32,000 bases of DNA from Shewanella sp. GD04112 (GCF_029835735.1 NZ_JAOEAL010000001.1:2470530-2502529); one strand, 5' to 3'. Shown: positions 4,549 to 31,176, numbered from the stretch's first letter. Program-made: numbers and translations. Notes: generated from the sequence alone by a model not told the origin.

Positions 4549-4669
4549 TTAGAAATTGTCATTATTAGTCACTTTTTTATACTCGCACCATGAGTAGGGT
4601 TAAGTTCTCTACTCAAGCCTGCAGCGTACGCGCTGCAACTTAGTGAGCACATAAAAGAGAGTGTGTGAA

Positions 4670-7693: not shown

Positions 7694-7695
7694 TT

Positions 7696-8598: not shown

Positions 8599-9218
8599 GT
8601 CATAAAGAGATGATAGTGCGCCATAAGCTCGTTGATCGTCTGTGTCACTGGACCATAGTCTTTGTGGGATTAGTGACCTTTTTAACGGGATTCTCGTTTT
8701 TTTACCCTTCGTTCCAGTGGCTGAGTGGCATTGTTGGCACACCACAACTGGCAAAAGTGATGCATCCATTCTTCGGGATCGCTATGTGTCTGCTGCTGGC
8801 GGTGATGCTGATCCGCTATTACCAGCACAATAAGTGGAATAAGTACGATTTGCCCTGGATGAAAGCCGTGGTGTGGGTGCTACTGCAAAAAGAAGAGAAC
8901 ATTCCGCCCGTGGGCCATTACAACCCAGGTCAGAAAATGTTATTCCGCGCCTTTGTGGTTTTTGTACTGGCGTTTCTGATCAGCGGCATCATGATGTGGC
9001 AACCTTATTTTGCCCCCATGTTCTCGGCAGAAGCCGTCAATTGGGCCACCTTAGTCCACTCGGCCTGCGGCATATTAATGCTGTTATCCCTGGTGGTACA
9101 CGTATGGATGGCCTGCTGGATTGAAGGATCTATCACTGGGATGCTCTACGGCAAAGTCTCTAAGGCTTGGGCTCGTAAGCACCACCCAGCCATGTTAGAA
9201 GAACACGAGGAAAAATAG
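8595..9218 (+). CDS. fdnI: Formate dehydrogenase cytochrome b556 (gamma) subunit
   Basis: 4-TM protein with MIVRHKLVDRLCHWT...HPFFGIAM...YNPGQKM...GKVSKAWARKHHP, matching the FdnI pattern. ATGA overlap with fdnH. Confidence 0.85.
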   Translation: MSHKEMIVRHKLVDRLCHWTIVFVGLVTFLTGFSFFYPSFQWLSGIVGTPQLAKVMHPFFGIAMCLLLAVMLIRYYQHNKWNKYDLPWMKAVVWVLLQKEENIPPVGHYNPGQKMLFRAFVVFVLAFLISGIMMWQPYFAPMFSAEAVNWATLVHSACGILMLLSLVVHVWMACWIEGSITGMLYGKVSKAWARKHHPAMLEEHEEK

Positions 9219-9220
9219 CG

Positions 9221-10120
9221 ATGAAGATGGCCAGCGATATCCCGTTAAGTTTTGTTGATAAATCCCCCTTAGCATTAAAACCGCTAAAAGCGGCACATCC
9301 TGAGAAAATTTATCAGCATAGAGCACGTCGTTTAGCACAATTAGCGCAGGATTCTCCGCTGGCGGATTATCTCAAGCTCTGCCAAATCCTAGTGTCGACG
9401 CAGCAAAAACTTGCGGCAACGGATATGGGCCCAGTACCAATGATTGACGCTGAGGTGCCATATCCGTTGTCCCTAAGCCAAACTCAAACGGCTCAGGATT
9501 GGTTAAAAGCATTGCAAGCATTGCTAACAAAATTGGTATCTCAAGTGCCCACGCATTTAGTGCCTGTTCTACAGGAGTTACAACAGCAGTCGCCAACTCA
9601 ATTGCTAGAGTGGGGCACTCAACTGAGGCAAGGGGAGTTTAGTGCCGTGCCTGCGCAGTACAGCCTATTTATTTGGGCGGGATTGTCCTTGTATTGGTCA
9701 CACTGGGCCCCCATGGTGATTGCACGAATGGATGTGAATAAGGTTAAACAGTCTAGCCTTTGCCCGGTGTGCGGCAGTCATCCCGTCGCCAGCATGATTG
9801 TCGATGAGCCACGGGAAGGGCTGCGCTATCTGCATTGCAGTCTGTGTGAAAGCGAGTGGCACTATGTGCGCGCCCATTGTACCTGCTGCGAGCAATCCCG
9901 GGAGATGTCAATTTGGTCGTTTGATGACCATAAGGCAGCCGTGCGGATTGAGAGCTGCGAGGCGTGCAAGGGATACACTAAGATGTTGTTTACCAACCGT
10001 TTGCCATTGTTAGATGCGGCAGCGGACGATATCGCATCGATGGGATTGGATGCCGAGCTCAATGCAAAGGGCTATGGTGCCACAACGGTAAATCCACTGT
10101 TACTTGCACATGAAGCCTAA
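9221..10120 (+). CDS. fdhE: Formate dehydrogenase accessory/maturation protein FdhE
   Basis: C-terminal rubredoxin-like cysteine pairs CPVCGS..LRYLHCSLCESEWHYVR..CTCCEQS...ESCEACKGYTK are typical of FdhE, and it sits in the conserved position after fdnI. Confidence 0.85.
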   Translation: MKMASDIPLSFVDKSPLALKPLKAAHPEKIYQHRARRLAQLAQDSPLADYLKLCQILVSTQQKLAATDMGPVPMIDAEVPYPLSLSQTQTAQDWLKALQALLTKLVSQVPTHLVPVLQELQQQSPTQLLEWGTQLRQGEFSAVPAQYSLFIWAGLSLYWSHWAPMVIARMDVNKVKQSSLCPVCGSHPVASMIVDEPREGLRYLHCSLCESEWHYVRAHCTCCEQSREMSIWSFDDHKAAVRIESCEACKGYTKMLFTNRLPLLDAAADDIASMGLDAELNAKGYGATTVNPLLLAHEA

Positions 10121-10173
10121 ATAGTAAAAAGGATTAATAAACAAGGCCATGGATGGTTTTGATACTGTATGTT

Positions 10174-10205
10174 CCATTCGGTCACCACTTAGTGTGACCG
10201 AATGG
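10174..10205 (+). terminator. Perfect 12-bp stem hairpin downstream of fdhE (terminator-like, no T tract)
   Basis: ccattcggtcac (10174-10185), 8-nt loop, gtgaccgaatgg (10194-10205). It is followed by tcatcg rather than a U run. Confidence 0.4.
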
Positions 10206-10430
10206 TCATCGACTGTGATATCAAACTAACTGATTCAAATCTTATTCGTGCGCTACGTGAAATCTGCAAAACTTGCAGGGGCAATCTTGCCAAATATTCA
10301 CGTAGGAACGCCTTGAAAATAGCGTAGAAGTAACCCATCAAATGTATCTATCCCTTGATTAAACAAAAATCAACGGTAAGCGCTAAACGAGGACAATCTT
10401 AACCCTTTATTGGGCGGACAATTAGACGCA

Positions 10431-10457
10431 TGAAAATTCTCACCGAGAATCAGAATG
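10431..10457 (+). repeat. Left terminal inverted repeat (IR-L) of the about 16.5-kb accessory segment
   Basis: TGAAAATTCTCACCGAGAATCAGAATG compared with the reverse complement of 26882-26908, TGACAATTCTCACTGAGAATCAGAATG, is 25/27 identical. It starts with TG and is preceded by CGCA (10427-10430). Confidence 0.8.
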
Positions 10458-10537
10458 AGCCTTCAATAAAATCAGATAGTTATACCTCTATTTCAGAATG
10501 CATCAAAACGAAGATTCTCACATAAATCAGAATGAGC
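10436..10537 (+). repeat. Sub-terminal direct repeats of an about 24-bp unit (ATTCTCAC-N4/5-ATCAGAATGAGC), plus partial copies
   Basis: Copy 1 is 10436-10460 (attctcaccgagaatcagaatgagc). Copy 2 is 10514-10537 (attctcacataaatcagaatgagc). Partial copies are aaaatcagatagt (about 10468) and tttcagaatgcat (about 10491). Confidence 0.8.
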
Positions 10538-11068
10538 TATATATTTATATTAACTATCTGAAATTTCTATATTTATTTTAAAAAGTGGTGCAGGCCGTTA
10601 TAGATAAACCCACATAGGTAACGTTTTCAATGAAGTGACTGACCACAAGATTGAGTAGATGCTATTGGCAATACCTTTCCATTATGCCCCCTTCATCCGT
10701 AAAAAAAACAACTGTCTGGACACCGACATTTTTATTACAAAATTTCTCCGTTTTTTTGTTAAATCAATGCAAAAGTTTCAGTATTTTTGTCCAAATATTG
10801 TTGGTTATTATCCAAAATTCATAAATGTAAGGTTAGTATCAGATTGATATTAACTTATTGTTTTAAATGGGTTCCTGAGCAATTTCGTACCCTTTGCTAA
10901 ATTCATATCCTGTTCGTCTTAGAGCATTGGAATCTAGAATGAGTGCCCAACCAAAATATGAATGGTCCATCTATGAAAATTAGCGACTGGCTGCCCGATT
11001 GATAGAACACTTATCCATGTCTTTTTCGTTGCTCTACACCGAACAGTGGCGATTCAAAGGAGGTTATT

Positions 11069-11239
11069 ATGGCTAAATCACTGAACGAACTTAGAAAGAG
11101 GCTTAAGCCACAAGTGCAATTGGCTGCTAGAGCTAAAGCAGAAGAAATTCTCGCTGAAATGAGCATGAAAGATGTGACTAAATCGCGTGGTCATAATGAG
11201 GCTACTGTCGAATTTCTGATTCCAGAAAGAAAAAATTAG
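11069..11239 (+). pseudogene. Short XRE/HigA-like antitoxin N-terminal fragment (56 codons)
   Basis: Strong SD aaggaggttattATG. MAKSLNELRKRLKPQVQLAARAKAEEILAEM resembles the N-terminal leader of HTH antitoxins, but the ORF stops before any HTH could be encoded. Confidence 0.35.
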
Positions 11240-11399
11240 TGGCAAAAGAAATGGATAAAACTAGGTAGCGAAGTAGTGGTGATTCAACCAACTTGAAATT
11301 AATTTGCCCCTTTCTTTGTTTCGCATGACCAAGTTAGCTCAGCTTGGTATTGAACCGTTGACCTAATTTTAGTAATGCTACAAGTGCCTACTGTTCTAG

Positions 11400-11812
11400 A
11401 GGCTAACCAGAGTCCCCGATAGAGGTCAATAAAATCGATCATTTCTGGGGTTTGCAATCTAGCACCGCGACTGCGAAAAAAGCCGCTGCCTTCTTCAAAA
11501 TTTCGTTAGCTTGTTTTAGCTCTCAGTTTTTACGTTTAAGCTCTTTAAGCCTGGTGGCCGTATCAGTTGTGACTCCAGTTTTCTCTCCAGAGGGCGGTTC
11601 CATTTTGTTAACCCATACTCGAAGGCTTTCTGGGGTACAACCGATCTTTGAAGCGATAGACTTGATAGCAGACCACCGAGATGGGTGCTCACGCTCTGCT
11701 GTTAAAACCATACGAACCGCACGTTCGCTGACTTCTGGGGAATAAGTAATTCTTTTTCTCATTGGCTAATTCTCTCAAGAAAGTTAGCCTCCGACAAACT
11801 AGGATCAATTCA
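11400..11812 (-). mobile_element. IS3-family remnant (left IR, orfA, first codons of orfB); inner (left-hand) boundary uncertain
   Basis: The minus-strand terminus TGAATTGATCC ends at 11812. It is followed by orfA and an ATGA-overlapping orfB start (MIDFIDLYRG..) at 11442. Recognisable transposase sequence fades near 11400. Confidence 0.6.
11436..11762 (-). pseudogene. IS3/IS911-type orfA (HTH transposase subunit) with an in-frame TGA
   Basis: MRKRITYSPEVSERAVRMVL...LKELKRKN-TGA(11520-11522)-ELKQANEILKKAAAFFA.. continues in the same frame, giving the typical IS3 OrfA leucine-zipper tail. Confidence 0.65.
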
Positions 11813-11866
11813 TCCTCCACGCTTTTTTACTCAGTTTGTTTTCACAAGCCGTAGTGGAGTTATGAA

Positions 11867-12733
11867 TCACAAGATCCACCGTTTTAAACTATGTGGCTGA
11901 GCGACCGTGAGCTGGTTAGCTTGAGGTGAAGATTTCAGCTTTTTTGTGTCAAGGCATATGTTTAGGCGTTTTACGTAATACTTAATCAAAGCTCTTCTGC
12001 AAGATACGAAAAACTGTGCTTCAAGCATCCCATAGTCTGCTTTTACAACCAGTTGCTGTTCTTGAGTAAGAAAGGGGTTCGTTGTGATTTCGAAAGTTTC
12101 TTCGATGTTCCAATCGTCATCATCTTCTTTGGTCAAAGAAGACTTATCGAGGATTTCAGGTTCATTCCTGAATCGGCTTAGAACAAAGTCTCGAAATCCC
12201 TTCTTCTCTTCACAGTAAGCTCGTACGTGCCATCTAAAACCATCGAAAACAAGGGTGTGCGGTGCAATGTTTCTTCCTCGCTCAGAAGGGTGCTCTAACG
12301 AAACATAGTCAACATCAACACATCGCTGCTCTCTTGCTGCTTGAAGCAAACGCCTAACGATAATTGGTGCAACATGGCGGTCAGGTACACTGAGCACGAT
12401 CGAGTTTGCTTGCCCTAGCCCTTGAAGGTCAAAACCATCAATATTTTCGTTAGTGTATTTGTTTAATAGAGACAGGTACTCGTTTGGCGTTCCCTGCGTA
12501 AAACGTGGTTTAAAGTCATTAGTGGGTCTATAGCCTTTAATCCCCCGGTCATGAACAAGCGGAGGTATTTCGAAAAGCTTCTGATAGTTAGCAATGTCTC
12601 TCGATGCTTGCTGCCGCCCGATGTTGAATGAATTGCAAAGATGATTGGTTGTGAGCCTGCCTTCCCAAAGGGCAACGATTTCAATGAGTCGAAATCTAAG
12701 AAGCTGCTCCCATTTAACGTCAGCGGTAACCAT
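11867..12733 (-). CDS. WYL-domain transcriptional regulator (N-terminal HTH + WYL), divergent from the muk/jet-like operon
   Basis: N-terminus: W.QLLRFRLIEIVALWEGRLTTNHLCNSFNIGRQQASRDIANY, an HTH. WYL core: RNIAPHTLVFDGFRWHVRAYCEEKKGFRDFVLSRF. The ATG at 12733 is preferred, because the 26-codon hydrophobic extension to 12811 would cover the promoter region. Confidence 0.75.
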   Translation of the reverse strand: MVTADVKWEQLLRFRLIEIVALWEGRLTTNHLCNSFNIGRQQASRDIANYQKLFEIPPLVHDRGIKGYRPTNDFKPRFTQGTPNEYLSLLNKYTNENIDGFDLQGLGQANSIVLSVPDRHVAPIIVRRLLQAAREQRCVDVDYVSLEHPSERGRNIAPHTLVFDGFRWHVRAYCEEKKGFRDFVLSRFRNEPEILDKSSLTKEDDDDWNIEETFEITTNPFLTQEQQLVVKADYGMLEAQFFVSCRRALIKYYVKRLNICLDTKKLKSSPQANQLTVAQPHSLKRWIL

Positions 12734-12759
12734 GTAATGCCTGTTTTTGCTACATGTTA

Positions 12760-12808
12760 ATGTATACAGACTATACATCAATAAAAACCACAAGTATATT
12801 GGGTATAC
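12760..12808. promoter_or_regulatory. Two GTATAC-containing palindromes in the divergent promoter region (candidate operators)
   Basis: ATGTATAcagacTATACAT (12760-12778) and GTATAttgggTATAC (12794-12808). Both lie between the WYL gene start (12733) and the operon start (12910). Confidence 0.4.
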
Positions 12809-12909
12809 CACTTACCAAACTCAACTTACTAAATTTGCGATAGAAAAATTGGTATTCGAGAAACATGGTAAAAATAGTGATCTAAAACGAGGAGCTTGCG
12901 CAGTTTCCT

Positions 12910-14241
12910 ATGTTCCAAACAGAAAGACTATCAGCTCTTTTAAACCAGGTTCGAATGAACGAGCCTGCATTACACATTGAGCCAAACGAATACCTTTATT
13001 TGGCAGCCATGAGCTTATGGAATGTAAACGACGATGACGATTACCGACTTGTCGACCCAGGATATAAGGAGGAACAGTGCAACGAAATATTCTCCTACGT
13101 TGACAGGTGGCTGGGTCAAGACGACATCACCTCATTCCGGACAAGTAATTTTCTAAAACGAGCTGTTGAACAGGGCCTCGTAATGCAGGCCGGAAGCTCG
13201 TTAAGAAACGCTGATGGCTTCTATCGACTTACTCAGCTGAGTCACGACCTCCTCAAGCCCTTTACCGGCGACACATTGATACAGAAAGAGTCACTTTCTC
13301 AGAGATATGTACGGTTGGAGATCTTGCTTGGGAACCTACTCGTCTTGAAGATAGAGGATGACGAAGAGTGGGCTAATGAGATTAAGGCTCAGCTACCTTC
13401 ATTTAGGGACCTTCTCGATGGTATTAACAAAAACCAGGAGGCCTTAATAAAAGGGTTTCAGCTTCAACGCAGCTCGATCCAGTCAGCAGCCAGCGGCTCT
13501 CTTGCGCAACAAATGCAGCACTTGATTGAGTTAATTGACGAGATTGCAGGCCAAATAAGGGACCTAAAATCGTTGATACTGAATGGGGCGGACAATGTGC
13601 TTTCTCTACTTCATGAAATCAAAGAGATGGCACATAACAGAAATGCTCCGATCAGACTTACCAATGCTATGGCTGATATTCATGACCAGCTGGATTCTAT
13701 TCGTCAGTTCTCTGGGCACTCTCTTCTGGAGCTAGCAGAGTTCTTTGAGCAAGTTTTATCCACTATCCGCCTAAAAATCACCCTAGATCCAAACGCGAAT
13801 CTCAATTTATTGATTGAAAAAGCAGTCCTGCAAATGGATCGGATGCCTTGGTCAATCTCTATTCTTGCGCCAGATCCTGTTGTGGAGCTCAGGGATTGGG
13901 AGGCTCCGCCTCCACCTTTGGAAAACGAACTGCCAAATGATGGCGACCCTGAAGTCATCCTTAGAAAGACCCCTAGCGACTACCTAGAAAAATTAGCTAA
14001 GGGACTCGTTGCGAGAATGTATGAGAGCGATAACGAGGTCGATATTTCAAAAGTTGCCGACCAGATCCTTTCCAATGAAGAGTTTCAATATAAAGACCGC
14101 CATCGGTTGCTGTTTTTCATCTTCGATGAGTTGATAAAAAACGGAGATTGGACACGCCCTGCCTATCACCCTGAGTGGGTACAATTAGCACACGATAATA
14201 ACGTTGAAATTGAACAACAGTGGTTCAAAAAATATGACTGA
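12910..14241 (+). CDS. jetA: MukF-like kleisin (JetA/MksF-class) subunit
   Basis: 443 aa; E. coli MukF is about 440 aa. The N-terminal winged-helix region ..FLKRAVEQGLVMQAGSSLRNADGFYRLTQLS.. resembles MukF ..[30 protein letters not shown]... There is an acidic/proline linker (WEAPPPPLENELPNDGDPE). The C-terminus EWVQLAHDNNVEIEQQWFKKYD resembles MukF [20 protein letters not shown]. The E. coli strings are from memory. Confidence 0.7.
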   Translation: MFQTERLSALLNQVRMNEPALHIEPNEYLYLAAMSLWNVNDDDDYRLVDPGYKEEQCNEIFSYVDRWLGQDDITSFRTSNFLKRAVEQGLVMQAGSSLRNADGFYRLTQLSHDLLKPFTGDTLIQKESLSQRYVRLEILLGNLLVLKIEDDEEWANEIKAQLPSFRDLLDGINKNQEALIKGFQLQRSSIQSAASGSLAQQMQHLIELIDEIAGQIRDLKSLILNGADNVLSLLHEIKEMAHNRNAPIRLTNAMADIHDQLDSIRQFSGHSLLELAEFFEQVLSTIRLKITLDPNANLNLLIEKAVLQMDRMPWSISILAPDPVVELRDWEAPPPPLENELPNDGDPEVILRKTPSDYLEKLAKGLVARMYESDNEVDISKVADQILSNEEFQYKDRHRLLFFIFDELIKNGDWTRPAYHPEWVQLAHDNNVEIEQQWFKKYD

Positions 14242-15016
14242 TCATCTATTTACACACGCTCAAGACTCAAAGAAACAGTACCTTACACTAGATGATGTAA
14301 TTGATGACCCCCTATTCGCGGATGTAGATTATCGCCTTAGGGGCGGGGTAAACATTACTAGTGAAGATGACCGGTTACATACCTTTCTAGGAGAGACGGA
14401 GAGTGTGCTTCGCAAGTTTTACGGCAAGTTACACCTGGCTCTAGAAGTCACGCCTGAGAAAGTTTATTACCTAAGGCCACAGCGTCGTTCAAATGTTCCT
14501 ACGACCCGATTGAACCAATTAGAAATGGTTATGGGTCTAACGATAGTTGCAATGCAATGGGAAAAAAATGCGACTGATTTCGAATGGATCCCCGTTGATT
14601 TTCTTATTGAACGATTGAAGTCTCAGCTGTCGGACGAACGGTTCGCTGAGTTGTATCGCCGTAAGCCGGGCATTCAGACAGACCATGATGTAGGGCGTGT
14701 GAGAGAGGAAACGTTGAAGAGACTCTCTAGACTGTCACGTCTGAGTTTTATTAGGCTCAACAGAGATGAGCAGACTTTCTGGGCAACTAATGCGATCTAC
14801 AGGTTTATCGAACCTTTGAAAGGCTTGAGCAGCGAAGACGAGTTGCCAGGCCGCATAAGTTCGTTAATCCAAGAGGGTTTTCTTACCGACTCACCTTCGC
14901 CCAGAGAAGAGTTAAGAGACACGCCAAGAACAGAGTCTGAACATTGGTCATCAGAAGGCCTAACTATCGAAGGTGATACTCGCGATATGTTTGATGCGGA
15001 GGAATATGATGCGTAA
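14234..15016 (+). CDS. jetB: MukE-like KITE (JetB/MksE-class) subunit
   Basis: DPLFADVDYRLRGG...FYGKLHLALEVTPEKVYYLRPQRRSNVPTTRLNQLEMVMG parallels E. coli MukE NPLFPALDSALRSG...[40 protein letters not shown] (from memory). It has an acidic C-terminal tail. ATG 14234 overlaps the upstream stop (ATGACTGA). Confidence 0.75.
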   Translation: MTDHLFTHAQDSKKQYLTLDDVIDDPLFADVDYRLRGGVNITSEDDRLHTFLGETESVLRKFYGKLHLALEVTPEKVYYLRPQRRSNVPTTRLNQLEMVMGLTIVAMQWEKNATDFEWIPVDFLIERLKSQLSDERFAELYRRKPGIQTDHDVGRVREETLKRLSRLSRLSFIRLNRDEQTFWATNAIYRFIEPLKGLSSEDELPGRISSLIQEGFLTDSPSPREELRDTPRTESEHWSSEGLTIEGDTRDMFDAEEYDA

Positions 15017-18000
15017 TTACCCATACATAAAGAGCCTGTCGCTTGTGGGCGTCAACGGAGTCTCTGCCAGAACCCTCGATTTAGTTAATCCTCATGAACA
15101 TCAGACTGATAGGCAATATGGCACCGTGGTTAGCCTTTTAGGCAAAAATGGTTCAGGGAAAACGACGCTACTTGGGACCTTTATGTTGGCTCTCTTACCC
15201 GATATTCGCTCGGTCAGTTTGGGAACATCGGATAATTTTACTCAGACGCAGAAGATGCAGGACGCAGAAATGTTTGAGCGCTTGGGTAATCCGTCTCTTA
15301 TTGGGTTAGAGGTTGTATCTCGTGCTGGTGAAAGAGCGCTGTTTATTGTTCGCTCTGAGCGAGAGACGGGGTCCCGCTTGAAGTTTGACACGTTCAGGGT
15401 TGGGTTGTTCGATAGTTTAGCACCACTTGATTTTCTTATCGTTCGTAACGGCAACATGGTTACGCCCAGAACTATAGATGGTATTCGAGATATAGCTGCC
15501 GAGCATGGCTGCCGACTACAAAGCTTCGACAAGATTGATAAATACATGCTGGCGTTGTTTAACGATGGTATTTTGCCCAGAACATTCAACCGTTCTAATG
15601 AGCGTTACCAATTAGGTCAGATTTTTCACAGCGCCATGTCAGGAAAAAGAGATCAAGCTATCGGCCGAGATCTAGCTGATTTCCTAATGACGCACTCAAG
15701 GACAAATATCAAAAGTGTGGTCGATGTGTTGTCTGGAACAATGCGAAAGCTTAGGCAGACAAGAGATGATCTGGCGCACAACTCCAAAGACTATGCGTTT
15801 TTCAAGGAGTTGTTAGAGAAGTCCTTCACTGTATCAGCTAAAGCATGGGCTCAAGCCGAGTACAATTTTTCTCGAGCAGATAAAGAAGCTACATCCTGTC
15901 GACAAGATGTTTCAGAGTGCAAAGTTTCTATTGAGAAGAGTGATCAGGATCTTACGGAGTGTCGTTCGAAACTAGATACAAGCGTTGAGAATAGAACATC
16001 ACTCGAGCAGGAAAGTGAACAGCTAAAGCCAAGACTTGCTTCTGCTGTTGAGGGCGAAATCTTCTACAAGCAGGGTAAACAAGCCTCTGTGAGTCTATTA
16101 AAGAAGGAAGCTCAACTTTACGAGAGTTTGAGTTTGTCCCAGTTGGCTGACGAAGGCGCTGACGCGTCGCGCAACAAAGTTGAACAAGCTAATCAAGATA
16201 TCTTGGATATCCAAGCACAGCTCGCAGATGTGCAAGAACGTTTTATCCTTCTTGAGAAAAAGGCGGGGCAATACCGAAATGCGAAGTCGTTATTAGATAG
16301 CGTCAAGAGCTGGTGTGGCGATAGCTTTGAACTAGCGAAGCTTAAGGGCATGATTGAAGAATACACTGCACAATCCAAACAGCTAGCGCTAGAGGCGGAC
16401 CAGCTGGGAAACAAGCTCAATAGTGCAGAGAATATCAATGAAATTCATGCTAAAGCTGCATCACTGATTCGACGCGCTGGCGATAGCATTGACCCAAACG
16501 TCGCAAAGAATTGGTTTATCTCTACAGAGCTTAGACTCGAAGAGGAACGCCCGCTAGCCGTTAGCCTTGAACAGATGAGAAATGGATTGAGTGCGTTGAA
16601 AAGGAATCATCGTACTGTGAACCGCATGCTTGATCGCTTTAAGCAAGCAAAGTTACCACGCATGCCTTCCAATGAATCTGAGTACCAACAGCTTACGGAA
16701 GACAGAGGAGAAGCTCTTGAGTCGGCGAAGGAGGTGAAAGCGAGTGTCGATGCTAGGTATGAGGACGAGCGACATATCCAGGAAGAGCTAAAGATCGAGG
16801 TTTCACGTCTCAAATCGCTGCGAACAGAGTGGCAAAATTATCAACCTGCGGTTGCACGTTTATATGAATGCTTCCCTGATACTCAATTCACGGCAGAGAT
16901 GTTAGATGGGTTGATTAAAAACACGCAGAGAGAACTCAGGTCATTACGAGAGAATAACTCCCGAATAGAGAGCAATATATTTTCTTTGAAAGAGAGGATC
17001 CTTTCACTCAGCAACAGGGAAACTGGGTCATTGGAAACCCTCCAACGTTTTGCCAGCGATGTTGGCGGAGTGGCCGTAGCGGACTTGTATAGCGATATAC
17101 CGTTAGAAGAAGCTGGATTCACCGAAGCGGCTTTAGGTCAGCTTATGTGCGCTATCGTAGTGAATGACCCGAGCGATGCGGCTAGAACGCTATTAGCTGA
17201 ATATGGTGATAACTGGCCATTACCTGACGTGATCTTAATGACTGTAAAAAACCACAGTCCTGATCAACTACGGAGTGGTGGCTATGACGCGGACCTGTTT
17301 TTTAAAGATCTTAGTCAAGAGTTTGTAGGTGCTGATCTAGACCTTAATCACAACGAAAATGATGTTCCTTGGGTAGTTCTCAGTGAACCCTTTGGCGGTA
17401 TACGTGTTAGCGGGGTGCCTACTGAACCAGTTTTGGGTAAAGAGGCTCGGGATAAGCTGATAGCAGATCTACAAATTGAGTTAAATTCAAAGCAAACTTT
17501 GTTTGACAGTAACGATGAGAATATATCGCTGCTGCAAAGTGGCCTAGAGCAAGCCAATCGAATCAACGTTAATCCCTCATTGGCTTTCGCTGTTGAGCCT
17601 AATGTTGAGCTCAAAAAACAGAAATTACAACAACAAGGTAATAAGGTAGCTGACCTGTACTCTCAAACGTTGCAAGCGACCAATCGCGTAAAAACCTTAG
17701 AACTACAATGCAGTTTGCTTGAACAGCATGCGGATTCAAGTGATTTGCTAGACGTTAACTTCGACAAGGAGATTATGGAAGCAGAGGAACAAATCATACG
17801 TTCTGAAAAGGCTAAAAAGTATGTCGATAGGTACGGCGGTACCTTCTCGCAGATAAAGCAGCAATACCCGAAGATTCGAGAAGATTATCAATCTGACATA
17901 GACACGCTAAAGCGACAACATCAACTCGCTGAACAAGATCTTAGCAATACCAACAACCGCAAGCGCGATTTAACCTCGCTTAACCAAGTGGCGAATCATC

Positions 18001-19562
18001 TCGCTGACGATTACGAGCAAGCACAAAACGATCTTGCGAAAGAAGATGGAAACGTAAGTTCATTGCGTGAGAGGCACAAACAGAAACGTGTCATGCTCGA
18101 TGAGTTGAAGGTTCAGTTGAGAGAAAGCGAAGATAAAGCACGCAAAAACAAAGAGGTACATCTTAAGCTTCAATCGGAATATTCTGTGTTAGAAGAGCAG
18201 GTTGCGGAATCAAAACGTAGTTTGTCAAAGCTGACTTACCCTTATTGCGAAGGACTCGAAAAACAACTTTCACTCGATAGCGAAACGATATCTAAACGAT
18301 TGAGAGCGGCTCAAGAGCAATGTGAATCACTCCAACTTAAGCAAGTATCATTAACCGAACGCCATAACACCCTACTCAAGCAAGTAGAATCCCTACAGAG
18401 TACATCAGTGATTGCAGAAGAGGCGCGTGAAAATGCAAATGGTATAAAGCAAAAGGTGCTGGATGCTCTGCCTGCCGGAGCCACAAAACATAAGCTAGAG
18501 CAAGAAATGGACGTCTATTTTAAACTGATGCATGAAGGTGAGGCCGTCCAATACACTAATGGGATTTACGCAATATCTGGATTGGTCAATCGCTATGGTT
18601 TGAGTCGAGATGATGAGTTCTCCCAAAAAATAAATAGTTTTAATCTAGAGGGAGGGACCACCCTGCCTAGTCTTTGCCAGCTGCATAGTGACGCTATTTC
18701 TTTGTTTCGTCGGCAAGCCCGAGGGGACATTATTCGTAGTTCCGAGCCGACAGAGATGCTTACACAATTGGATAGTGCGTGTAGTCTCGCTAGGAGAACA
18801 CTTGAAAGCGCCGAAGAGCAGTTTCTCACAGATAGAAATGAACTAGGAAATGCCATTGCCCGTCGTGTACAGGATGAGCAGAAAGCCATAAGAAGGCTAA
18901 GTGCTGAAATGATAGGAATAAGCTTTGGGCAAGTTGCGGCTATTCGTCTAGTACCTAAAAGCGTCCCTCATTTCGAAGCTACTTTGAAGGCTTTGAGAGG
19001 AAGCGACGATGTCATGGACGATCTCTTCAATAATGCTGAAGATGTAGAAGAAGCGCTCGCAACACTATATCAAAAAACCACTGGTGGCCGGATCGAGGGA
19101 GAAAAGCTGCTTGACCATAAGAACTACATCAATGTGGTAACAGAAATCCAGAGAGTTGGTAGTGAAGAATTTGAGTTATTGGATGACAAAACACTTTCAA
19201 CAGGAGAGCGAATTGGCTCTGGATTGGTTGTCTTAATAGCAATTCTAAAAAACTGGGGACGGGTCTCACATGAAAAACAACCTTTCTTAATCCCGTTAGT
19301 AATGGATGAAGCATCACGTTTGGACTCCGACGCTCAGAGAACGGTGCACCAGTTGGCGGTAAAGACCGGAAGTCAGATTGTAATTGCCGCACCTGAGTCG
19401 CAAGGAAAGATATCAGGTGTTGGCTATCAACTTGTCAGAAGTGCTTCTAAAGCAGGTAACAAAGAGAGCCGTGTAATCATTAGTGGGATCCGGGATGCTG
19501 ACAGTTTAGGGATTGATGAAGAAGCATTTATCGATTCGGTTGTGAGTGGGGCGGCGCATTGA
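15006..19562 (+). CDS. jetC: MukB-like SMC ATPase (JetC/MksB-class), 1518 aa
   Basis: - SD GGAGGA precedes ATGATG at 15006.
- N-terminal head: IKSLSLVGVNGVSARTLDL, Walker A GKNGSGKTT (15141-15167), ALLPD.
- Very long coiled coils.
- Hinge-like VADLYSDIPLEEAGFTEAALGQLMCAIVVNDPS.
- C-terminal head: SFGQVAAIRL...LSTGERIGSG...LVMDEASRLD (D-E at 19305-19310)...QIVIAAPE...GYQLVR.
- Each motif matches MukB motifs as I recall them. Confidence 0.85.
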   Translation: MMRNYPYIKSLSLVGVNGVSARTLDLVNPHEHQTDRQYGTVVSLLGKNGSGKTTLLGTFMLALLPDIRSVSLGTSDNFTQTQKMQDAEMFERLGNPSLIGLEVVSRAGERALFIVRSERETGSRLKFDTFRVGLFDSLAPLDFLIVRNGNMVTPRTIDGIRDIAAEHGCRLQSFDKIDKYMLALFNDGILPRTFNRSNERYQLGQIFHSAMSGKRDQAIGRDLADFLMTHSRTNIKSVVDVLSGTMRKLRQTRDDLAHNSKDYAFFKELLEKSFTVSAKAWAQAEYNFSRADKEATSCRQDVSECKVSIEKSDQDLTECRSKLDTSVENRTSLEQESEQLKPRLASAVEGEIFYKQGKQASVSLLKKEAQLYESLSLSQLADEGADASRNKVEQANQDILDIQAQLADVQERFILLEKKAGQYRNAKSLLDSVKSWCGDSFELAKLKGMIEEYTAQSKQLALEADQLGNKLNSAENINEIHAKAASLIRRAGDSIDPNVAKNWFISTELRLEEERPLAVSLEQMRNGLSALKRNHRTVNRMLDRFKQAKLPRMPSNESEYQQLTEDRGEALESAKEVKASVDARYEDERHIQEELKIEVSRLKSLRTEWQNYQPAVARLYECFPDTQFTAEMLDGLIKNTQRELRSLRENNSRIESNIFSLKERILSLSNRETGSLETLQRFASDVGGVAVADLYSDIPLEEAGFTEAALGQLMCAIVVNDPSDAARTLLAEYGDNWPLPDVILMTVKNHSPDQLRSGGYDADLFFKDLSQEFVGADLDLNHNENDVPWVVLSEPFGGIRVSGVPTEPVLGKEARDKLIADLQIELNSKQTLFDSNDENISLLQSGLEQANRINVNPSLAFAVEPNVELKKQKLQQQGNKVADLYSQTLQATNRVKTLELQCSLLEQHADSSDLLDVNFDKEIMEAEEQIIRSEKAKKYVDRYGGTFSQIKQQYPKIREDYQSDIDTLKRQHQLAEQDLSNTNNRKRDLTSLNQVANHLADDYEQAQNDLAKEDGNVSSLRERHKQKRVMLDELKVQLRESEDKARKNKEVHLKLQSEYSVLEEQVAESKRSLSKLTYPYCEGLEKQLSLDSETISKRLRAAQEQCESLQLKQVSLTERHNTLLKQVESLQSTSVIAEEARENANGIKQKVLDALPAGATKHKLEQEMDVYFKLMHEGEAVQYTNGIYAISGLVNRYGLSRDDEFSQKINSFNLEGGTTLPSLCQLHSDAISLFRRQARGDIIRSSEPTEMLTQLDSACSLARRTLESAEEQFLTDRNELGNAIARRVQDEQKAIRRLSAEMIGISFGQVAAIRLVPKSVPHFEATLKALRGSDDVMDDLFNNAEDVEEALATLYQKTTGGRIEGEKLLDHKNYINVVTEIQRVGSEEFELLDDKTLSTGERIGSGLVVLIAILKNWGRVSHEKQPFLIPLVMDEASRLDSDAQRTVHQLAVKTGSQIVIAAPESQGKISGVGYQLVRSASKAGNKESRVIISGIRDADSLGIDEEAFIDSVVSGAAH

Positions 19563-20509
19563 TGCATGGACTACTGGAGGATGTAAAGTTAACACCTAAG
19601 CAGGCACTGGCACTTATTGATAAGCTTATTGAGCGCGGGAAAGTGTTGCCCAACCAGAGAGATAGTTTACTGATTGAGCGCCTTGAGCAACTTGGCATAG
19701 TGAAACGAGTGGGGAGTTACTGGCAGCTGTGTGAGCCCCAACGCATTGAGAGTGTTCGTAACCAAATAACGCAATATACTTTGCAAAAAAACAGGCCTGG
19801 TATCTTACGAAAGATGCCCGTTGTACATCATAAAAGTGCTGCTGCCTGGCGAGGACATAGCAAAAGTGGGCAAGGCGAGGCTCTTCAGAAAGGTCAACTG
19901 ATAAGTACAGACGATGTAGTACGGGTCCGCACTCAGAAGACCGGGTTCGTAATATACAGCGATAACGCCACGATTGATACTGACTTGGAGACTCTGCAAA
20001 GGACTGAAGTCAGCTTACCAGAACGGTTGTACAAAGACGCTCATGCGCCCTGTGTCGCTGGGGTAAAGTTGGTGTTGACTGTCGAAAACTTGGGCACATT
20101 TGTTGACTTCCCCATGGTGGATGGACTCGTATTGGTTTACTCATCAGGGAATAACTTTGCATCATCGGTTTGTTTTATCAAGCGCTTCTTGGAAGAGGTG
20201 ACCTGGGCACACTTCCCGGACCTTGATCCCAATGGTCTGATCATATCAACGCAAATGGCAGATACCCTCAACAAACCTTGCAATGTTTGGATTCCACCTC
20301 ATTGGGATAGGGTCCGAGCTCAGCCGCTGGTTTCTGGTAAAGGAAAAAAGGTATGGGGGGAAGCCCCTGCCTGCCCTGAAATCGCAAGTTTGCAGGAAAC
20401 AAGCCATTGGGTTGAGCAAGAGGTTCTCGTCTTAGATCAACGAAGCGTCAAAGCCGTCAGTGAGCTTGTTAGTGAGCCTAAGCTCCGGCTAATAACTCTT
20501 CAATACTAA
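19562..20509 (+). CDS. jetD: JetD/MksG-type Toprim (topoisomerase-VI-like) nuclease subunit, 315 aa
   Basis: The start overlaps the jetC stop (TGATG). Toprim signature: VLTVENLGTFVDF (Glu codon 20084-20086), WAHFPDLDPNGLII (DxD 20228-20236), then HWVEQEVL. The N-terminus looks winged-helix-like (LIDKLIERGKVL..LEQLGIVKRVGSYWQL). Confidence 0.7.
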   Translation: MHGLLEDVKLTPKQALALIDKLIERGKVLPNQRDSLLIERLEQLGIVKRVGSYWQLCEPQRIESVRNQITQYTLQKNRPGILRKMPVVHHKSAAAWRGHSKSGQGEALQKGQLISTDDVVRVRTQKTGFVIYSDNATIDTDLETLQRTEVSLPERLYKDAHAPCVAGVKLVLTVENLGTFVDFPMVDGLVLVYSSGNNFASSVCFIKRFLEEVTWAHFPDLDPNGLIISTQMADTLNKPCNVWIPPHWDRVRAQPLVSGKGKKVWGEAPACPEIASLQETSHWVEQEVLVLDQRSVKAVSELVSEPKLRLITLQY

Positions 20510-20699
20510 AGATTTTACGATTGACAGTTCAGGCGGCAGTTAATCAAACATTGTACTCGGCGAAGCTGATGTTCGTGCAGTGTGTCGACAATTCCGCTAC
20601 AGGGAAAGTCTCAATTCATTGCCTGGCGAACAATAGCCTAGCTATGCCCATAAGAAGCAGTTATCTGACTAGTTTACTTCTTAAGAATAAGGATACTTA

Positions 20700-22010
20700 A
20701 TGAGTATTGAGAAGTTTAGAAGCGTGGAGGAACTAAAACAGTTCTTCGAAGAAGGAGGTAACCCTTGGTTTGATGCAGAATTTTCTCCTCAGACTCAGAG
20801 TATCGTCGAAGCATTGGATGCAAAAGGAGCCTTTCTCAATAAGTGGTGGGTAAGGACCGCCATGGATTGGAAGTGTCCCGCCTGTAAAAGGACTAAGCCC
20901 CAAATAGCCAAACTAGATAATCGTAGATATGCCTCCTGCAAACTGGAGGAGCATCACGATCACATGAAGGATACGGTGCGCACGTTGTTCGAAGAAATAT
21001 CTTCGAACAGAGAAGTCGTTGTTGCAACTGAGCTAGCTAAGCGGTTTGCAATCAGGACGTCCTTTGCAATTTCCGCTTACGATAACACGGTGATTTGCGC
21101 GGATTGTAATAAAGCAGACGGTATTGCAAAACGGATGGTCAAAACTCACAGTGACTTTTCATACTCTCCAGCAGAAATTGGGCGATTTGTAAAACCATCA
21201 GATAATCGAGAGCATGAAATTGACGCGGATATCGCCAAGGAAATTTGGAACGAGAATCTGGAAACGTTCAATAAGCGTATGCAGTTGGCAAAAGTTATAG
21301 CGGAGTTGGCTGCCAGCGATTCACATTGGTATCAACCCTCAGAACCAACAGCCAAGCAAGTCAATGATTCTGCCAATTACAAGTTTAACTTGCGTGGATT
21401 AAGAGACCTTCACGATGATCCTGAAAAGCTTCTATACAATACAACGCCTTTCAAGGGAAACCACTCATCATGGAGATTGAATCCCAAGCCTTTCACAAGT
21501 ACGAGACCAACTGATGGACAAATAGCACATTTATCTAACACCAGGGGGCGGTACTGGAACAGGTACGACGACAGCTGGCAATGCCCATGTTGTGGTCGTT
21601 TAAAGCGGGAATGTCTTAAGCCGTCTAAAAATAACCCTTGGGTGTTTGAAGTAAAGGCCATTCTAGCTCATGATTCTGAGCATCAGTCTTTTGCTGAAGA
21701 AATTAAGGTGTGCAACGAATGTTTCAATGCTGCAAACCATCTTGGCCAGGAAGCAATAAAAGAAGCCAAAGAACAAGATGAGACGGTAGATGTATATTTT
21801 CCACATAGCTTGATACAACTGGAAGAGTTGAAGTCTGTTATAACGCCGAGATTACACTCCTCACATATCATTGATAATGACTTGGCTGAAAACGTGGTTC
21901 GCAATGCCATCAGGCGCATTATTGATGAAGACTATAACCAATCCCCAAAGCACAAGATGAAGCTGCAAGAACAGTTCAGTACAATGCTTTATGGTGGAAG
22001 TTGTGAATAG
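20700..22010 (+). CDS. Protein with two endonuclease-VII/HNH-like zinc modules (436 aa), otherwise unassigned
   Basis: SD aaggatacttaATG. Module 1: WKCPACKRTK...KLEEHHDHMKD...(about 47 aa)...VICADCNKADGIAKR. Module 2: WQCPCCGRLKREC...ILAHDSEHQSFAEEIKVCNECFNAANHLGQ. The layout CxxC...H.DH...CxxCN..(D/E)G is that of the T4 endonuclease VII branch of the HNH fold. Confidence 0.55.
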   Translation: MSIEKFRSVEELKQFFEEGGNPWFDAEFSPQTQSIVEALDAKGAFLNKWWVRTAMDWKCPACKRTKPQIAKLDNRRYASCKLEEHHDHMKDTVRTLFEEISSNREVVVATELAKRFAIRTSFAISAYDNTVICADCNKADGIAKRMVKTHSDFSYSPAEIGRFVKPSDNREHEIDADIAKEIWNENLETFNKRMQLAKVIAELAASDSHWYQPSEPTAKQVNDSANYKFNLRGLRDLHDDPEKLLYNTTPFKGNHSSWRLNPKPFTSTRPTDGQIAHLSNTRGRYWNRYDDSWQCPCCGRLKRECLKPSKNNPWVFEVKAILAHDSEHQSFAEEIKVCNECFNAANHLGQEAIKEAKEQDETVDVYFPHSLIQLEELKSVITPRLHSSHIIDNDLAENVVRNAIRRIIDEDYNQSPKHKMKLQEQFSTMLYGGSCE

Positions 22011-22164
22011 TTCAGCCTTCGCTAGACACGAATGCAGCGACTCCACTGTCTAATTTGATCAAATATTGTGAAGGTCCACTAGAACCGACTTTAAAAAAAA
22101 TCAGTGATTTATATGGGGATTACTAAAATTGGCCTTCTTTTGAGAATTACATGAGGGGAATGAA

Positions 22165-22530
<366 letters not shown>

Positions 22531-22857
22531 CTATGCCACTACACTCATATATTAGAACGTGAGAGCGTGGAGCGGATCGCTGCTCATCCTGGAAATCCGA
22601 TTGGCAATATTGTCGAACTCTGGGAAGAACAGGAAATCGGTGTGACTAAAGAAGCAAAGTTATTGAAGGTAATTGACCGCTTATTGCCATTCTTACATAA
22701 CATGACTAGCGAAGGCCAAGCTTGGAGGGATAATGGAATACATAAAGCCCAAGTGTTGAATATGCACCAATTTATCGAGAAGGAAAGTCCTGAAATTTTT
22801 TCATGGTTTGTTATACAGCTCGAATATGCCGTTGAACAAGGTTGGCTTAAAGCATGA
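22531..22857 (+). pseudogene. 3' fragment of an HD-domain (HD_3-type metal-dependent phosphohydrolase) gene
   Basis: ..IVELWEEQEIGVTKEAKLLKVIDRLLPFLHNMTSEGQAWRDNGIHKAQVLNMHQFIEKESPEIFSWFVIQLEYAVEQGWL matches the C-terminal half pattern of HD_3 proteins. The catalytic HD part is missing, and the frame is open right up to the IS3 terminus at 22530. Confidence 0.55.
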
Positions 22858-23065
22858 TCTTTCATTGGTTGTTTCTTGTCTATCCAGACTAGGCCCGTAA
22901 CTTGTCGATGCCCCATTCAAAGTTATCAACACGACTTGAGATGAGCATCACTAGCCTAATGTTGACCCAAACTAAGTAATGCGACAAAGTCCCCCTGTGT
23001 CAGGATTGTTGTCACCCCTAAATAATCATTATGTTTAAAGACAGGGTGCGGCAAAAGAGAACGAT

Positions 23066-23566
23066 ATGGCTCGGTATTCACCAGAACGTAAAGAAGCGAT
23101 CCTTAAAAAATTATTACCTCCTCACAACTTAACGGTCGCAGAGGTCGCTCGGGAAGAAGGCATCGCGGTGCAAACCTTGTATCATTGGCGAGATATTGCC
23201 AGAAAAGAAGGTCGCCCCGTGCCAGGTAAAACATTAACAGCCGATGATTGGTCGGCTGAAGCAAAACTTGCCGTGATTATTGAAACAGCGCCGCTGTCGG
23301 AAGCGGAGATAAACCAGTATTGCCGTGAAAAGGGCTTGTTCCGCGAGCAAGTACAGCAGTGGAAACAGGATTGTTTAGCTGGTTTTCAAACCTCAGAAGT
23401 ACAAACTAAAACCATTAAACAGCAGGCTAAGGCTGACAAAGCCGAAATCAAATCGCTGCAACGGGAATTGCGCTATAAGGAGAAAGCGCTGGCTGAAGCT
23501 GCTGCGTTACTGGTGCTCAGAAAAAAGCTCAATGCGCTCTGGGGGGACGACAGCGAGGAGAGCTAA
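23066..23566 (+). CDS. IS3-family transposase OrfA (HTH + leucine zipper)
   Basis: MARYSPERKEAILKKLL..LTVAEVAREEGIAVQTLYHWR is an HTH, followed by a coiled-coil tail KAEIKSLQRELRYKEKALAEAAALLVLRKKL. Confidence 0.8.
   Translation: MARYSPERKEAILKKLLPPHNLTVAEVAREEGIAVQTLYHWRDIARKEGRPVPGKTLTADDWSAEAKLAVIIETAPLSEAEINQYCREKGLFREQVQQWKQDCLAGFQTSEVQTKTIKQQAKADKAEIKSLQRELRYKEKALAEAAALLVLRKKLNALWGDDSEES
23521..23527 (+). promoter_or_regulatory. Programmed -1 ribosomal frameshift heptamer A AAA AAG
   Basis: The heptamer is in the X XXY YYZ register of orfA (codons AGA AAA AAG). The -1 frame is open from here into orfB (..AQCALGGRQRGELTPLPERIALI..). Confidence 0.7.
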
Positions 23567-23571
23567 CCCCC

Positions 23572-24621
23572 TTGCCTGAGCGCATAGCATTGATTGCCTT
23601 AATCCAAGAGGCCTATACCAATGGTGCTCGCCTTTATAAGGCTTGTGCTGAAACGGGCCTCAGTAAGCGTACCTATCGACGTTGGTATCGAGAAGGTCAA
23701 GTGCAAGCTGATTTAAGGCCAACAGCAGCTCGACCAGAGCCAGCAAATAAACTCGAAGAACATGAGCGACAACAGATATTAAGTGTGTGCAATCAAGCGG
23801 AGTACGCCAGCTTACCCCCGTCGCAAATTGTGCCAACATTATTAGATAACGGGATTTATATCGCCTCGGAATCCAGCTTCTACAGAGTGTTAAATGCTCA
23901 TGGTCAACTTAACCATCGTGGCCGCACTCAGGCTGCGGTCAATCGAAGCAAACCGTTGAGTTATCGGGCAGATGGGCCGAATCAAGTGTGGTCATGGGAC
24001 ATCACTTATTTAGCCTCAATCGTCAAAGGCCAGTTCTACTATTTGTACCTGTTTGAAGATATTTACAGTAGAAAAATAGTGGGTTACGAAGTTCATGAGC
24101 AAGAAAGTGGGGAATATGCCGCTGCGCTAATCCAACGCTGTCTGTTACGCGAGCAATGCTTTAACACGCCATTAGTGCTGCATTCTGATAATGGGGCGCC
24201 GATGAAGTCACTGACCATGAAAGCCAAGCTGGAAGAGCTTGGTATTACGGCATCATTAAGTCGGCCGCGGGTGAGTAATGACAACCCCTTTTCAGAGTCG
24301 TTATTTAAAACGTTGAAATACCGCCCACAGTGGCCGGCATCAGGTTTTAGCTGCTTAGCAACAGCAAGAGAATGGGTGGAAAAGTTTGTAACCTGGTACA
24401 ACGATGAGCATAAACACAGCCAGCTAAATTTTGTCTCACCAGGGCAACGTCATGCACTGCAAGATGGCGCTATTTTAGCGAAGCGCAAGAAAGTGCTTGA
24501 GGCGGCGAAGGAAAGAAAACCGATGCGTTGGTCTACAGAGATCAGAAATTGTGAAGCGGTTGGCGCTGTAACACTCAACCCAGATAAGGCACCAGAAGAA
24601 GGCGTAATAAATGCAGCTTAA
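23572..24621 (+). CDS. IS3-family transposase OrfB (DDE integrase core; expressed as an OrfAB fusion)
   Basis: WSWDITYL (D), LVLHSDNGAPM (D), SNDNPFSESLFKTLKYR (E); rve-type core. The frame is -1 relative to orfA. Confidence 0.8.
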   Translation: MPERIALIALIQEAYTNGARLYKACAETGLSKRTYRRWYREGQVQADLRPTAARPEPANKLEEHERQQILSVCNQAEYASLPPSQIVPTLLDNGIYIASESSFYRVLNAHGQLNHRGRTQAAVNRSKPLSYRADGPNQVWSWDITYLASIVKGQFYYLYLFEDIYSRKIVGYEVHEQESGEYAAALIQRCLLREQCFNTPLVLHSDNGAPMKSLTMKAKLEELGITASLSRPRVSNDNPFSESLFKTLKYRPQWPASGFSCLATAREWVEKFVTWYNDEHKHSQLNFVSPGQRHALQDGAILAKRKKVLEAAKERKPMRWSTEIRNCEAVGAVTLNPDKAPEEGVINAA

Positions 24622-24764
24622 TATTTAAACAAAGAGTGACAACTATCTTGAAAAACACCGAAGTCGCCGACTCTAACTATGGCGATTCTGCGCCGCTTAC
24701 TACTAATAATCATTAAGTTAATTATTCTTAAATATCTGAAAGGAAGCACCTATGATAGGCATTA

Positions 24765-26069: not shown

Positions 26070-26277
26070 CATCTTAGCTTTGCGTTAACCCATAGAAATT
26101 TTTATCCGAAAATGTCGAGTTAGAGTTAAGGCTTTAACTCGGAATTGTCCAATTACTTGATAGAGCATTTAATACAAATGAAAGAATAGGGCGGAATAAA
26201 AGTAGTCACAAAATTAGTGTTTTAAGATGCTTATTACATTGACAAATGCCATACATTTTTTACAAGGAAGCATCTTC

Positions 26278-27368: not shown

Positions 27369-27400
27369 GGGAGGGGGCGCTCCGCTTGCCTCCCCCTCCC
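27369..27400 (-). terminator. GC-rich hairpin immediately after the zot-like stop codon
   Basis: gggaggggg (27369-27377) pairs with ccccctccc (27392-27400) across a 14-nt loop. There is no clean U tract on the minus strand, so a terminator or attenuator role is tentative. Confidence 0.35.
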
Positions 27401-29078: not shown

Positions 29079-29087
29079 ATTTACCCC

Positions 29088-30659: not shown

Positions 30660-30729
30660 ATTAAATCCTGTAATGTGATAAGCATAAAACCCCTAAGGAG
30701 GGGCAAGCCCCTCACAGAGAAAACGACTA

Positions 30730-30933: not shown

Positions 30934-30948
30934 AAATCACCTATTTAG

Positions 30949-31164: not shown

Positions 31165-31176
31165 TGCTTTGAATCC

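Follow-up and report, generated by a model that had tools for sequence, protein, structure and literature searches.

A probable Wadjet-group defence module built on a MukBEF-type SMC ATPase in a mobile cassette of Shewanella

Type I Wadjet and the MksBEFG system of Corynebacterium glutamicum restrict circular plasmids through extrusion-dependent cleavage. Both the type I Wadjet operons JetABCD (Escherichia coli GF4-3, Pseudomonas aeruginosa PA14) and C. glutamicum MksBEFG consist of the same four components as the locus described here, namely a kleisin, a KITE subunit, an SMC ATPase and a Toprim nuclease. Operons of the Wadjet group, with or without the nuclease MksG, have been compiled by Bürmann et al. 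(2025; Cell, PMC7617805). The locus studied here is a four-gene operon in a 32,000-nt stretch of Shewanella sp. GD04112, referred to below as the window, and all coordinates are positions in that stretch unless another sequence is named. We consider it probable, at roughly 0.8, that this operon is a Wadjet-group (MksFEBG/JetABCD-like) defence module assembled on a MukBEF-type SMC, with a predicted activity of cleaving small circular DNA. It belongs to a kind that is already known and catalogued.

The operon comprises four plus-strand open reading frames (ORFs) whose stop and start codons overlap (Table 1), the call for the last of them beginning at either 19559 or 19562. Reading the junctions directly from the sequence, genes 1 and 2 meet at ATGACTGA (14234-14241), genes 3 and 4 at TGATG (19560-19564), and genes 2 and 3 through a GGAGGA at 14998-15003 followed by ATGATG at 15006-15011, all of it within the mukE-like gene, whose TAA stop lies at 15014-15016. 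The ATG of the mukF-like gene at 12910 is itself preceded by AGGAG at 12890-12894. The operon is intact and translationally coupled, and the co-directional arrangement of kleisin, KITE, SMC ATPase and Toprim nuclease genes is that of the Wadjet group. The recurrence of the F-E-B-G order in dozens of unrelated genomes, together with the family matches given below, is far above chance.

Using profile searches we found that the first three products are relatives of MukF, MukE and MukB. For gene 1, the alignment to the NCBIfam MukF model runs from end to end (residues 6-436 on positions 7-434 of 440, E 9e-20), with a score of 71 bits against a cut-off of 407; the protein matches Pfam KicB and MukF_M under their cut-offs, and its significant matches among PDB chains are to MukF only (E 6e-6). 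Gene 2 matches Pfam MksE (4.1e-23) and MukE (2.8e-18), scores 63.5 bits against a cut-off of 250 with NCBIfam MukE, and finds only MukE among the PDB chains (1.7e-14). Gene 3 carries the Pfam MukB N-terminal (3e-19) and MukB hinge (1e-14) domains, reaches 1527 bits with NCBIfam MukB (cut-off 699) over positions 1-1484 of 1486, and likewise matches only MukB chains (9e-53). In the search of all PDB chain sequences, no solved JetA, JetB or JetC chain was matched by F, E or B. The SMC is about 400 aa longer than that of type I Wadjet and contains the MukB N-terminal and hinge domains; its Walker A, signature and Walker B motifs are all intact and collinear with those of E. coli MukB. The system is thus like canonical MukBEF in its F-E-B order with overlaps, its subunit sizes, its collinear motifs and its full-length profile alignment. 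Unlike canonical MukBEF, it has a fourth, nuclease gene and is accessory, mobile and regulated by a BrxR-family protein, and the identity to E. coli K-12 is low: 20.5% for MukF and 29% for MukE, and MukB aligns in pieces at 20-33% (the SMC and Vibrio MukB share 22-24%).

The score of 1527 bits was considered as a measure of closeness to housekeeping MukB and was rejected as such, given an identity of merely 20-33% and the behaviour of the model itself. The NCBIfam MukB model (NF003422) gives 2646 bits for E. coli MukB, and the paralogues from E. coli DETEC-P881 (1447 bits) and Bradymonas (889 bits) pass its cut-off too. Because the model accepts paralogues, passing it does not imply orthology, and as a consequence of its accepting nuclease-associated paralogues RefSeq names such SMCs 'chromosome partition protein MukB'. 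The nuclease-associated SMCs that it passes are those of the window, of the DETEC-P881 locus (L087, 10420-15003) and, at 889 bits, of the locus L005 (5553-10001).

The product of gene 4 has an N-terminal winged-helix/CAP-like part and a C-terminal Toprim domain. Its AlphaFold2 model is confident (predicted local distance difference test score, pLDDT, 86.5), and the top Foldseek matches, with a probability of 1.0, are C. glutamicum MksG (8b7f), Spo11, P. aeruginosa JetD (7til) and Topo VI-A, in agreement with the Topo VI-A/Spo11-like Toprim fold of the type I Wadjet and MksBEFG nucleases. At the profile level, Pfam JetD_C is matched weakly (27.7 bits against a cut-off of 22, model positions 38-106 of 179), and the PADLOC JetD1 and JetD3 models match only the Toprim segment, residues 150-236 approximately, with a best E of 8e-7 for JetD1. 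In an alignment of 11 members of the gene-4 family, E176, D221 and D223 are invariant, and the profile made from these 11 members found a single match among the PDB sequences, which was again MksG 8b7f. On its predicted fold, gene 4 is an MksG/JetD-type nuclease of about 315 aa with a divergent N-terminal half.

An earlier prediction made from the DNA of the window (the original prediction) had read the locus as a MukFEB-like set, carried horizontally and linked to a JetD-type Toprim gene, and this core reading holds. The overlaps that it reported between four same-strand genes agree with both the ORF call and our direct reading. The product sizes that it gave (443/260/1518 aa), and that it held to track E. 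coli MukF/MukE/MukB rather than the JetC of about 1100 aa, are correct and near-identical to those of MukBEF. All the motif strings that it quoted were found, in collinear order, in the window proteins, and the E. coli strings that it set against them are all correct when compared with the real K-12 MukF, MukE and MukB. The Walker B D-E pair that it placed at 19305-19310 is the GATGAA within LVMDEASRLD, and the Toprim Glu that it placed at 20084-20086 is the GAA of TVENLG. Its identification of gene 4 as a Toprim protein is supported by the confident model and the fold matches described above.

A nearly identical operon is present in the published catalogue. Data S1 of Bürmann et al. (2025) enters the operon of Shewanella sp. 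FJAT-53555 (CP080417.1, 961103-968657) as FEBG, and lists FEBG also from Salmonella Paratyphi B SPB7, Vibrio parahaemolyticus and V. natriegens. The FJAT-53555 operon is essentially the same element as that of the window, including the regulator gene brxR and the gene for a 436-aa protein that we call C436, and differs in location and flanks. We found no description of, or experiment on, the FJAT-53555 operon in the main text of the same paper; its published entry consists of one row of the catalogue and one leaf of the tree. Through this leaf (QYJ90828.1, 98.7% identical to the window SMC) the published tree provides the phylogenetic placement of the window system. The Shewanella SMC forms a clade with the FEBG SMCs of Salmonella and Vibrio (support 100 and 91), and this clade is sister to a group formed by a long-branch pair and the pairing of MukB with Bradymonas-type SMCs. 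Within that pairing, canonical MukB (E. coli and Endozoicomonas, FEB) joins the FEBG clade of Bradymonas, Massilia and Plasticicumulans with a support of 100, and the assemblage of both FEBG clades and MukB, which also has a support of 100, lies within the Wadjet group. The FEBG operons of Myxococcota, Planctomycetota, Burkholderiales and Pseudomonas, for example those of Bradymonas sediminis, Duganella and Sorangium, have the same architecture and a gene 4 of the same short-MksG family. Bradymonas-type FEBG is nevertheless a separate clade, sister to canonical MukBEF, with the window clade one step further out; relative to the window, its gene-4 identity is 26-30%, its SMCs give phmmer scores of 145-167 bits, and its loci have neither BrxR nor C436.

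Comparison of the two Shewanella copies by blastn revealed a block of 10,510 bp (11787-22296) with 98.99% DNA identity and unrelated flanks on both sides; the FJAT-53555 copy lies at 0.96 Mb of 4.66 Mb, at a different chromosomal location and among different flanking genes. The encoded proteins are 99.3% (F), 100% (E), 98.7% (B) and 99.4% (G) identical. This 99% identity between unrelated flanks indicates that brxR, F, E, B, G and C436 move as a cassette. The ratios of nonsynonymous to synonymous differences (pN/pS) between both copies are 0.07 for F, 0.00 for E, 0.27 for B and 0.07 for G; the operon is under purifying selection. The window locus is, in addition, 99.99% identical to that of Shewanella sp. 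ANA-3 (CP000469.1), except for an insertion sequence (IS) and the region past a dif-like site.

The distribution of relatives of the system is that of an accessory element. Among 5.8 billion clusters at 90% identity, 10 contain gene-4 relatives, and among 1.84 billion clusters at 50% identity there are 164, just 4 of them at E < 1e-30. No SMC homologue of 43-89% identity was found in the 5.8 billion clusters, a gap that a housekeeping gene passed on vertically in a genus with many species could not show. The F-E-B-G order was observed in every full contig inspected (Tara metagenome, Duganella, Bradymonas). Across 185,579 species genomes, the scan returned 92 gene-4 relatives, with hosts that include Myxococcota, Planctomycetota, Burkholderiales and Pseudomonas, and in most of the 80 loci fetched gene 4 follows MukF-, MukE- and MukB-like genes, the SMC being about 1470 aa long. 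A closer subclade, in Pseudoalteromonas and several Enterobacteriaceae, shows full-length gene-4 matches of 35-39% and SMCs of 1515-1527 aa. One of 5,426 complete E. coli genomes, that of DETEC-P881 (L087, NZ_CP116100.1, 158535-186475), carries a relative. Since all 5,426 have canonical mukFEB, the paralogue and the housekeeping complex coexist in that strain, and it is for this E. coli relative that coexistence is shown. RefSeq annotates the products of the DETEC-P881 relative as MukE, MukB and 'Wadjet anti-phage system protein JetD domain-containing protein'.

Some of these loci have particularities of their own. The insertion point of the DETEC-P881 relative is behind yeeN, and the annotation divides its MukF-like gene into two ORFs. 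Next to the relative come genes for a 600-aa hypothetical protein, a Gabija-like pair of UvrD-helicase and ATP-dependent nuclease, and a 1468-aa hypothetical protein. In Motilimonas cestriensis (L020, 9638-10594) a short MksG-like gene is solitary, there being neither SMC nor kleisin nor KITE genes around it, and solitary copies also occur in three other Motilimonas loci (L029, L030 and L046). At the loci L017 and L020, which have orphan or rearranged gene-4 relatives, no JetC-like SMC that could serve as a phylogenetic outgroup was found.

The operon is preceded by a divergent gene, 98-132 bp upstream, that encodes a WYL-domain regulator of the BrxR family. Its start in the NCBI gene call for strain ANA-3 corresponds to about 12778, and precomputed domain assignments on the identical ANA-3 and FJAT-53555 regulator genes comprise WHD_BrxR, WYL and BrxR_CTD. 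A homologous regulator is found upstream of the operon in Pseudoalteromonas sp. G4. BrxR-family regulators are known upstream of many defence systems, Wadjet included, and are common in Shewanella (PMC9122601). The imperfect inverted repeat in the divergent intergenic region (Table 1) is a candidate BrxR operator, and one weak sigma-70-like match lies at 12772-12800.

Table 1. Features of the operon and its cassette in the 32,000-nt window
Feature	Coordinates	Strand	Evidence or remark
MukF-like kleisin (MksF/JetA equivalent), 443 aa	12910..14241	+	NCBIfam MukF end-to-end alignment; PDB MukF chains
MukE/MksE-like KITE subunit, 260 aa from ATG	14234..15016	+	Pfam MksE/MukE; PDB MukE
MukB-type SMC ATPase, 1518 aa	15006..19562	+	NCBIfam MukB full length; Pfam MukB N-terminal and hinge
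Walker A GKNGSGKTT	15141-15167	+	MukB-like SMC, motif mapping
Signature LSTGERIGSG	19194-19223	+	MukB-like SMC, motif mapping
Walker B LVMDEASRLD (D1434, E1435)	19296-19325	+	MukB-like SMC, motif mapping
Short MksG/JetD-like nuclease (predicted), 315 aa (316 from 19559)	19562..20509	+	JetD_C, JetD1, MksG fold
Catalytic Glu in TVENLG	20078-20095	+	Gene 4, invariant in family alignment
DxD in FPDLDPNG	20213-20236	+	Gene 4, invariant in family alignment
BrxR-family WYL transcriptional regulator, longest ORF	11867..12811	-	Pfam WYL 3.8e-14; PADLOC WYL 1.3e-24
Divergent intergenic/promoter region	12762..12909	.	Imperfect inverted repeat 12762-12776 / 12794-12808
C436, 436-aa Cys/His-rich protein	20700..22010	+	Travels with the cassette
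Mobile 10.5-kb cassette brxR + F + E + B + G + C436	11787..22296	.	Shared with S. halotolerans FJAT-53555

C436, with which the cassette ends, is 99% identical in FJAT-53555, where it also lies directly 3' of gene 4, and 66% identical to the final gene of an F-E-B-G-HD-C436 string on the Tara contig L002. Its motifs CPxC..HHDH..CxDCN, which is HNH-like, and CxxC..CxxC are invariant. The AlphaFold2 model of C436 is confident (pLDDT 85), and no PDB fold match was obtained with it. The family is widespread in other contexts: C436 follows an HD/dGTPase-like gene in the Tara contig L002 and in Paraglaciecola, stands beside nSTAND3 in Dickeya, and forms part of a cassette array in V. campbellii. C436 is probably an independent neighbouring module, and its membership of the system is putative.

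The cassette is bracketed by two unrelated transposase-orfA (HTH_Tnp_1) remnants, both on the minus strand (11523-11762 and 22270-22470), and its right edge at 22296 falls within the second of them. No convincing direct, inverted or matching terminal repeats were found at the cassette boundaries. To the left, an AT-rich gap (10100-13000, 37-42% GC) follows a formate dehydrogenase operon (4661-10120), the conserved flank of the island on this side, encoding the molybdopterin subunit, the 4Fe-4S subunit, cytochrome b and FdhE. To the right there is an IS3-family element at 22992-24660 (orfA 23066-23566, orfB 23572-24621) that is absent in ANA-3, and the alignments flanking it have 5 nt in common, as a target-site duplication would produce. 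Genes of the type found in defence islands also lie downstream, namely an HD_3 fragment (22567-22857), an Mrr-family restriction endonuclease (25272-26018) and an HNH endonuclease (26227-26748). They are followed by a dif-like site at 26948-26975 with 2 mismatches to E. coli dif, where 0 such sites are expected by chance, and the match to ANA-3 ends exactly there. A CTXphi/Zot-type filamentous (inovirus) prophage occupies 27400-31985, right of the dif-like site, and includes genes for Zot-like, minor coat and ssDNA-binding proteins as well as a fragment of a replication-nicking protein. The proximity of the cassette to dif is probably incidental, because the FJAT-53555 cassette sits elsewhere.

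These observations bear on the remaining statements of the original prediction. Horizontal carriage of the MukFEB-like set with its Toprim gene is borne out by the 99%-identical cassette at a different locus of another Shewanella species; the WYL regulator does have the BrxR domains, and the island is indeed close to a dif-like site. The novelty that the prediction implied was overstated. A 99-100%-identical operon had already been entered as FEBG in Data S1 of Bürmann et al. (2025), and RefSeq already applies a Wadjet JetD label to gene 4 of a relative, so the conceptual framework and a catalogue entry both exist.

If its homologues, type I Wadjet and the MksBEFG of C. glutamicum, are taken as a guide, the proposed defence module would work as follows. 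The kleisin would link two MukB dimers into a dimer of dimers, and the complex would load on DNA and carry out ATP-driven loop extrusion on incoming molecules. A small closed circle would be wholly consumed by the motors, leading to a stall, and the stalled state would recruit or activate a dimer of the short MksG, which would then make a Mg2+-dependent cut in the DNA. The chromosome would be spared, being too long for full extrusion, and BrxR probably represses the operon until a signal is received.

Several results weigh against this picture. None of the PADLOC JetA or JetB models of types I-III matches gene 1 or gene 2, and on gene 3 the JetC3 model gives a coiled-coil match alone (E 0.0025). 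Given this failure of the JetA/B/C models, the transfer of mechanism from type I spans a large sequence distance, and the dimer geometry of MukBEF differs from that of type I Wadjet (review, PMC10586767). Gene 4 falls about 80 residues short of a typical JetD, JetD profiles cover its Toprim half only, and its global TM-scores to MksG and JetD are low (0.35-0.39); its docking onto the SMC complex may therefore differ from that of JetD. The promoter and terminator scan gave nothing over shuffled expectation, and no promoter or operator has been demonstrated.

The same PADLOC results speak to whether the operon could be a divergent member of Wadjet type I, II or III, a point that the original prediction had left undecided. 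That idea draws on the identical four-component architecture, on the JetD1 match to the Toprim part of gene 4 and on a JetC1 match in the Bradymonas relative (1.7e-12), which is confined to the C-terminal head of the SMC; the Bradymonas kleisin shows weak matches to JetB1 and JetA3 (E 0.0017 and 0.009, respectively), and its KITE has none. We regard it as very improbable, in view of the absent or partial JetA/B/C matches, which the Kluyvera relative reproduces, of sequence searches that retrieve MukF, MukE and MukB structures and no JetA, JetB or JetC chain, and of the grouping of the clade with MukB at a support of 100. Judged by the PADLOC models, the system is not Wadjet type I, II or III; it lies outside these types as defined by hidden Markov models and, at the same time, within the published Wadjet-group phylogeny, near canonical MukBEF. 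Equally to be weighed is that the operon might be the housekeeping condensin of Shewanella, a true MukBEF orthologue with gene 4 as an unrelated neighbour. Its score over the NCBIfam MukB equivalog cut-off and the public annotation as MukB would fit this, as would an orthologue table in which S. frigidimarina is without mukF (PMC2912659). The MukB model, however, also passes the E. coli and Bradymonas paralogues, the MukF and MukE scores are far under their equivalog cut-offs, and the identity to E. coli and Vibrio MukB is just 20-33%. Vertical inheritance across a large genus should supply homologues in the 43-89% identity range, which are absent, and a 10.5-kb block is 99% identical at a different locus of another species. 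Moreover, translational coupling and joint conservation in several phyla tie gene 4 to F-E-B, a defence-type BrxR regulator stands upstream, and E. coli DETEC-P881 has a relative alongside its canonical mukFEB. We find this explanation scarcely credible.

A role other than plasmid restriction for a MukBEF-like complex with a nuclease deserves somewhat more consideration and is still quite unlikely. Conceivable targets are phage or filamentous-phage replicative forms, dif-integrating elements, or the chromosome during processing at the terminus, and in favour of them one may cite the position of the cassette 6.4 kb from a dif-like site and beside an inovirus prophage, the MukB-type hinge, the short MksG with its divergent N-terminal half, and the relative that has HD and C436 genes fused into its operon. 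However, the position is unrelated in FJAT-53555 and the contexts are different again in E. coli, Kluyvera, Duganella and Bradymonas, and the replicative forms of filamentous phages are small circles that the ordinary Wadjet mechanism would cover in any case. That the operon is what remains of a defence system in decay and no longer functions is, like the housekeeping explanation, hard to sustain. IS remnants and an IS3 insertion do lie around the cassette, and the MukF-like gene is split in the annotation of DETEC-P881, but the window has four intact ORFs with complete catalytic motifs and pN/pS values of 0.00-0.27 between the Shewanella copies. A Wadjet-group defence module with a MukBEF-type SMC is the reading that we retain.

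The position of the clade also touches on the origin of MukBEF, which a 2023 review leaves unresolved while speculating that it evolved out of Wadjet-type defence (PMC10586767). A single short-MksG family is common to both FEBG clades, which speaks for an ancestor that had the nuclease and for its loss in MukBEF; most simply, MukBEF is the derivative that lost it. A bolder and, in our estimate, unlikely proposal is that gammaproteobacterial FEBG constitutes a fourth type of Wadjet, distinct in function, and a living relative, still with its nuclease, of the lineage that became MukBEF. It would have a MukB-type motor, with the MukB hinge and possibly the I-shaped dimer geometry of MukBEF, and a truncated MksG that docks unlike JetD. 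If this were true, the system would require insulation from the host MukBEF in the same cell, and it could show how a plasmid-cutting SMC was converted into a chromosome organiser. It could also reveal a target range unlike that of type I, for example filamentous-phage replicative forms.

As a member of the Wadjet group, the cassette represents one of two nuclease-bearing clades that adjoin canonical MukBEF, and it is found in orders that also bear MukBEF. This makes it a handle on how MukBEF lost its nuclease and on how two MukBEF-like machines avoid cross-assembly. The PADLOC Wadjet models miss the system and the NCBI model calls its SMC MukB, so that for this clade both defence censuses and condensin annotations are slightly wrong.

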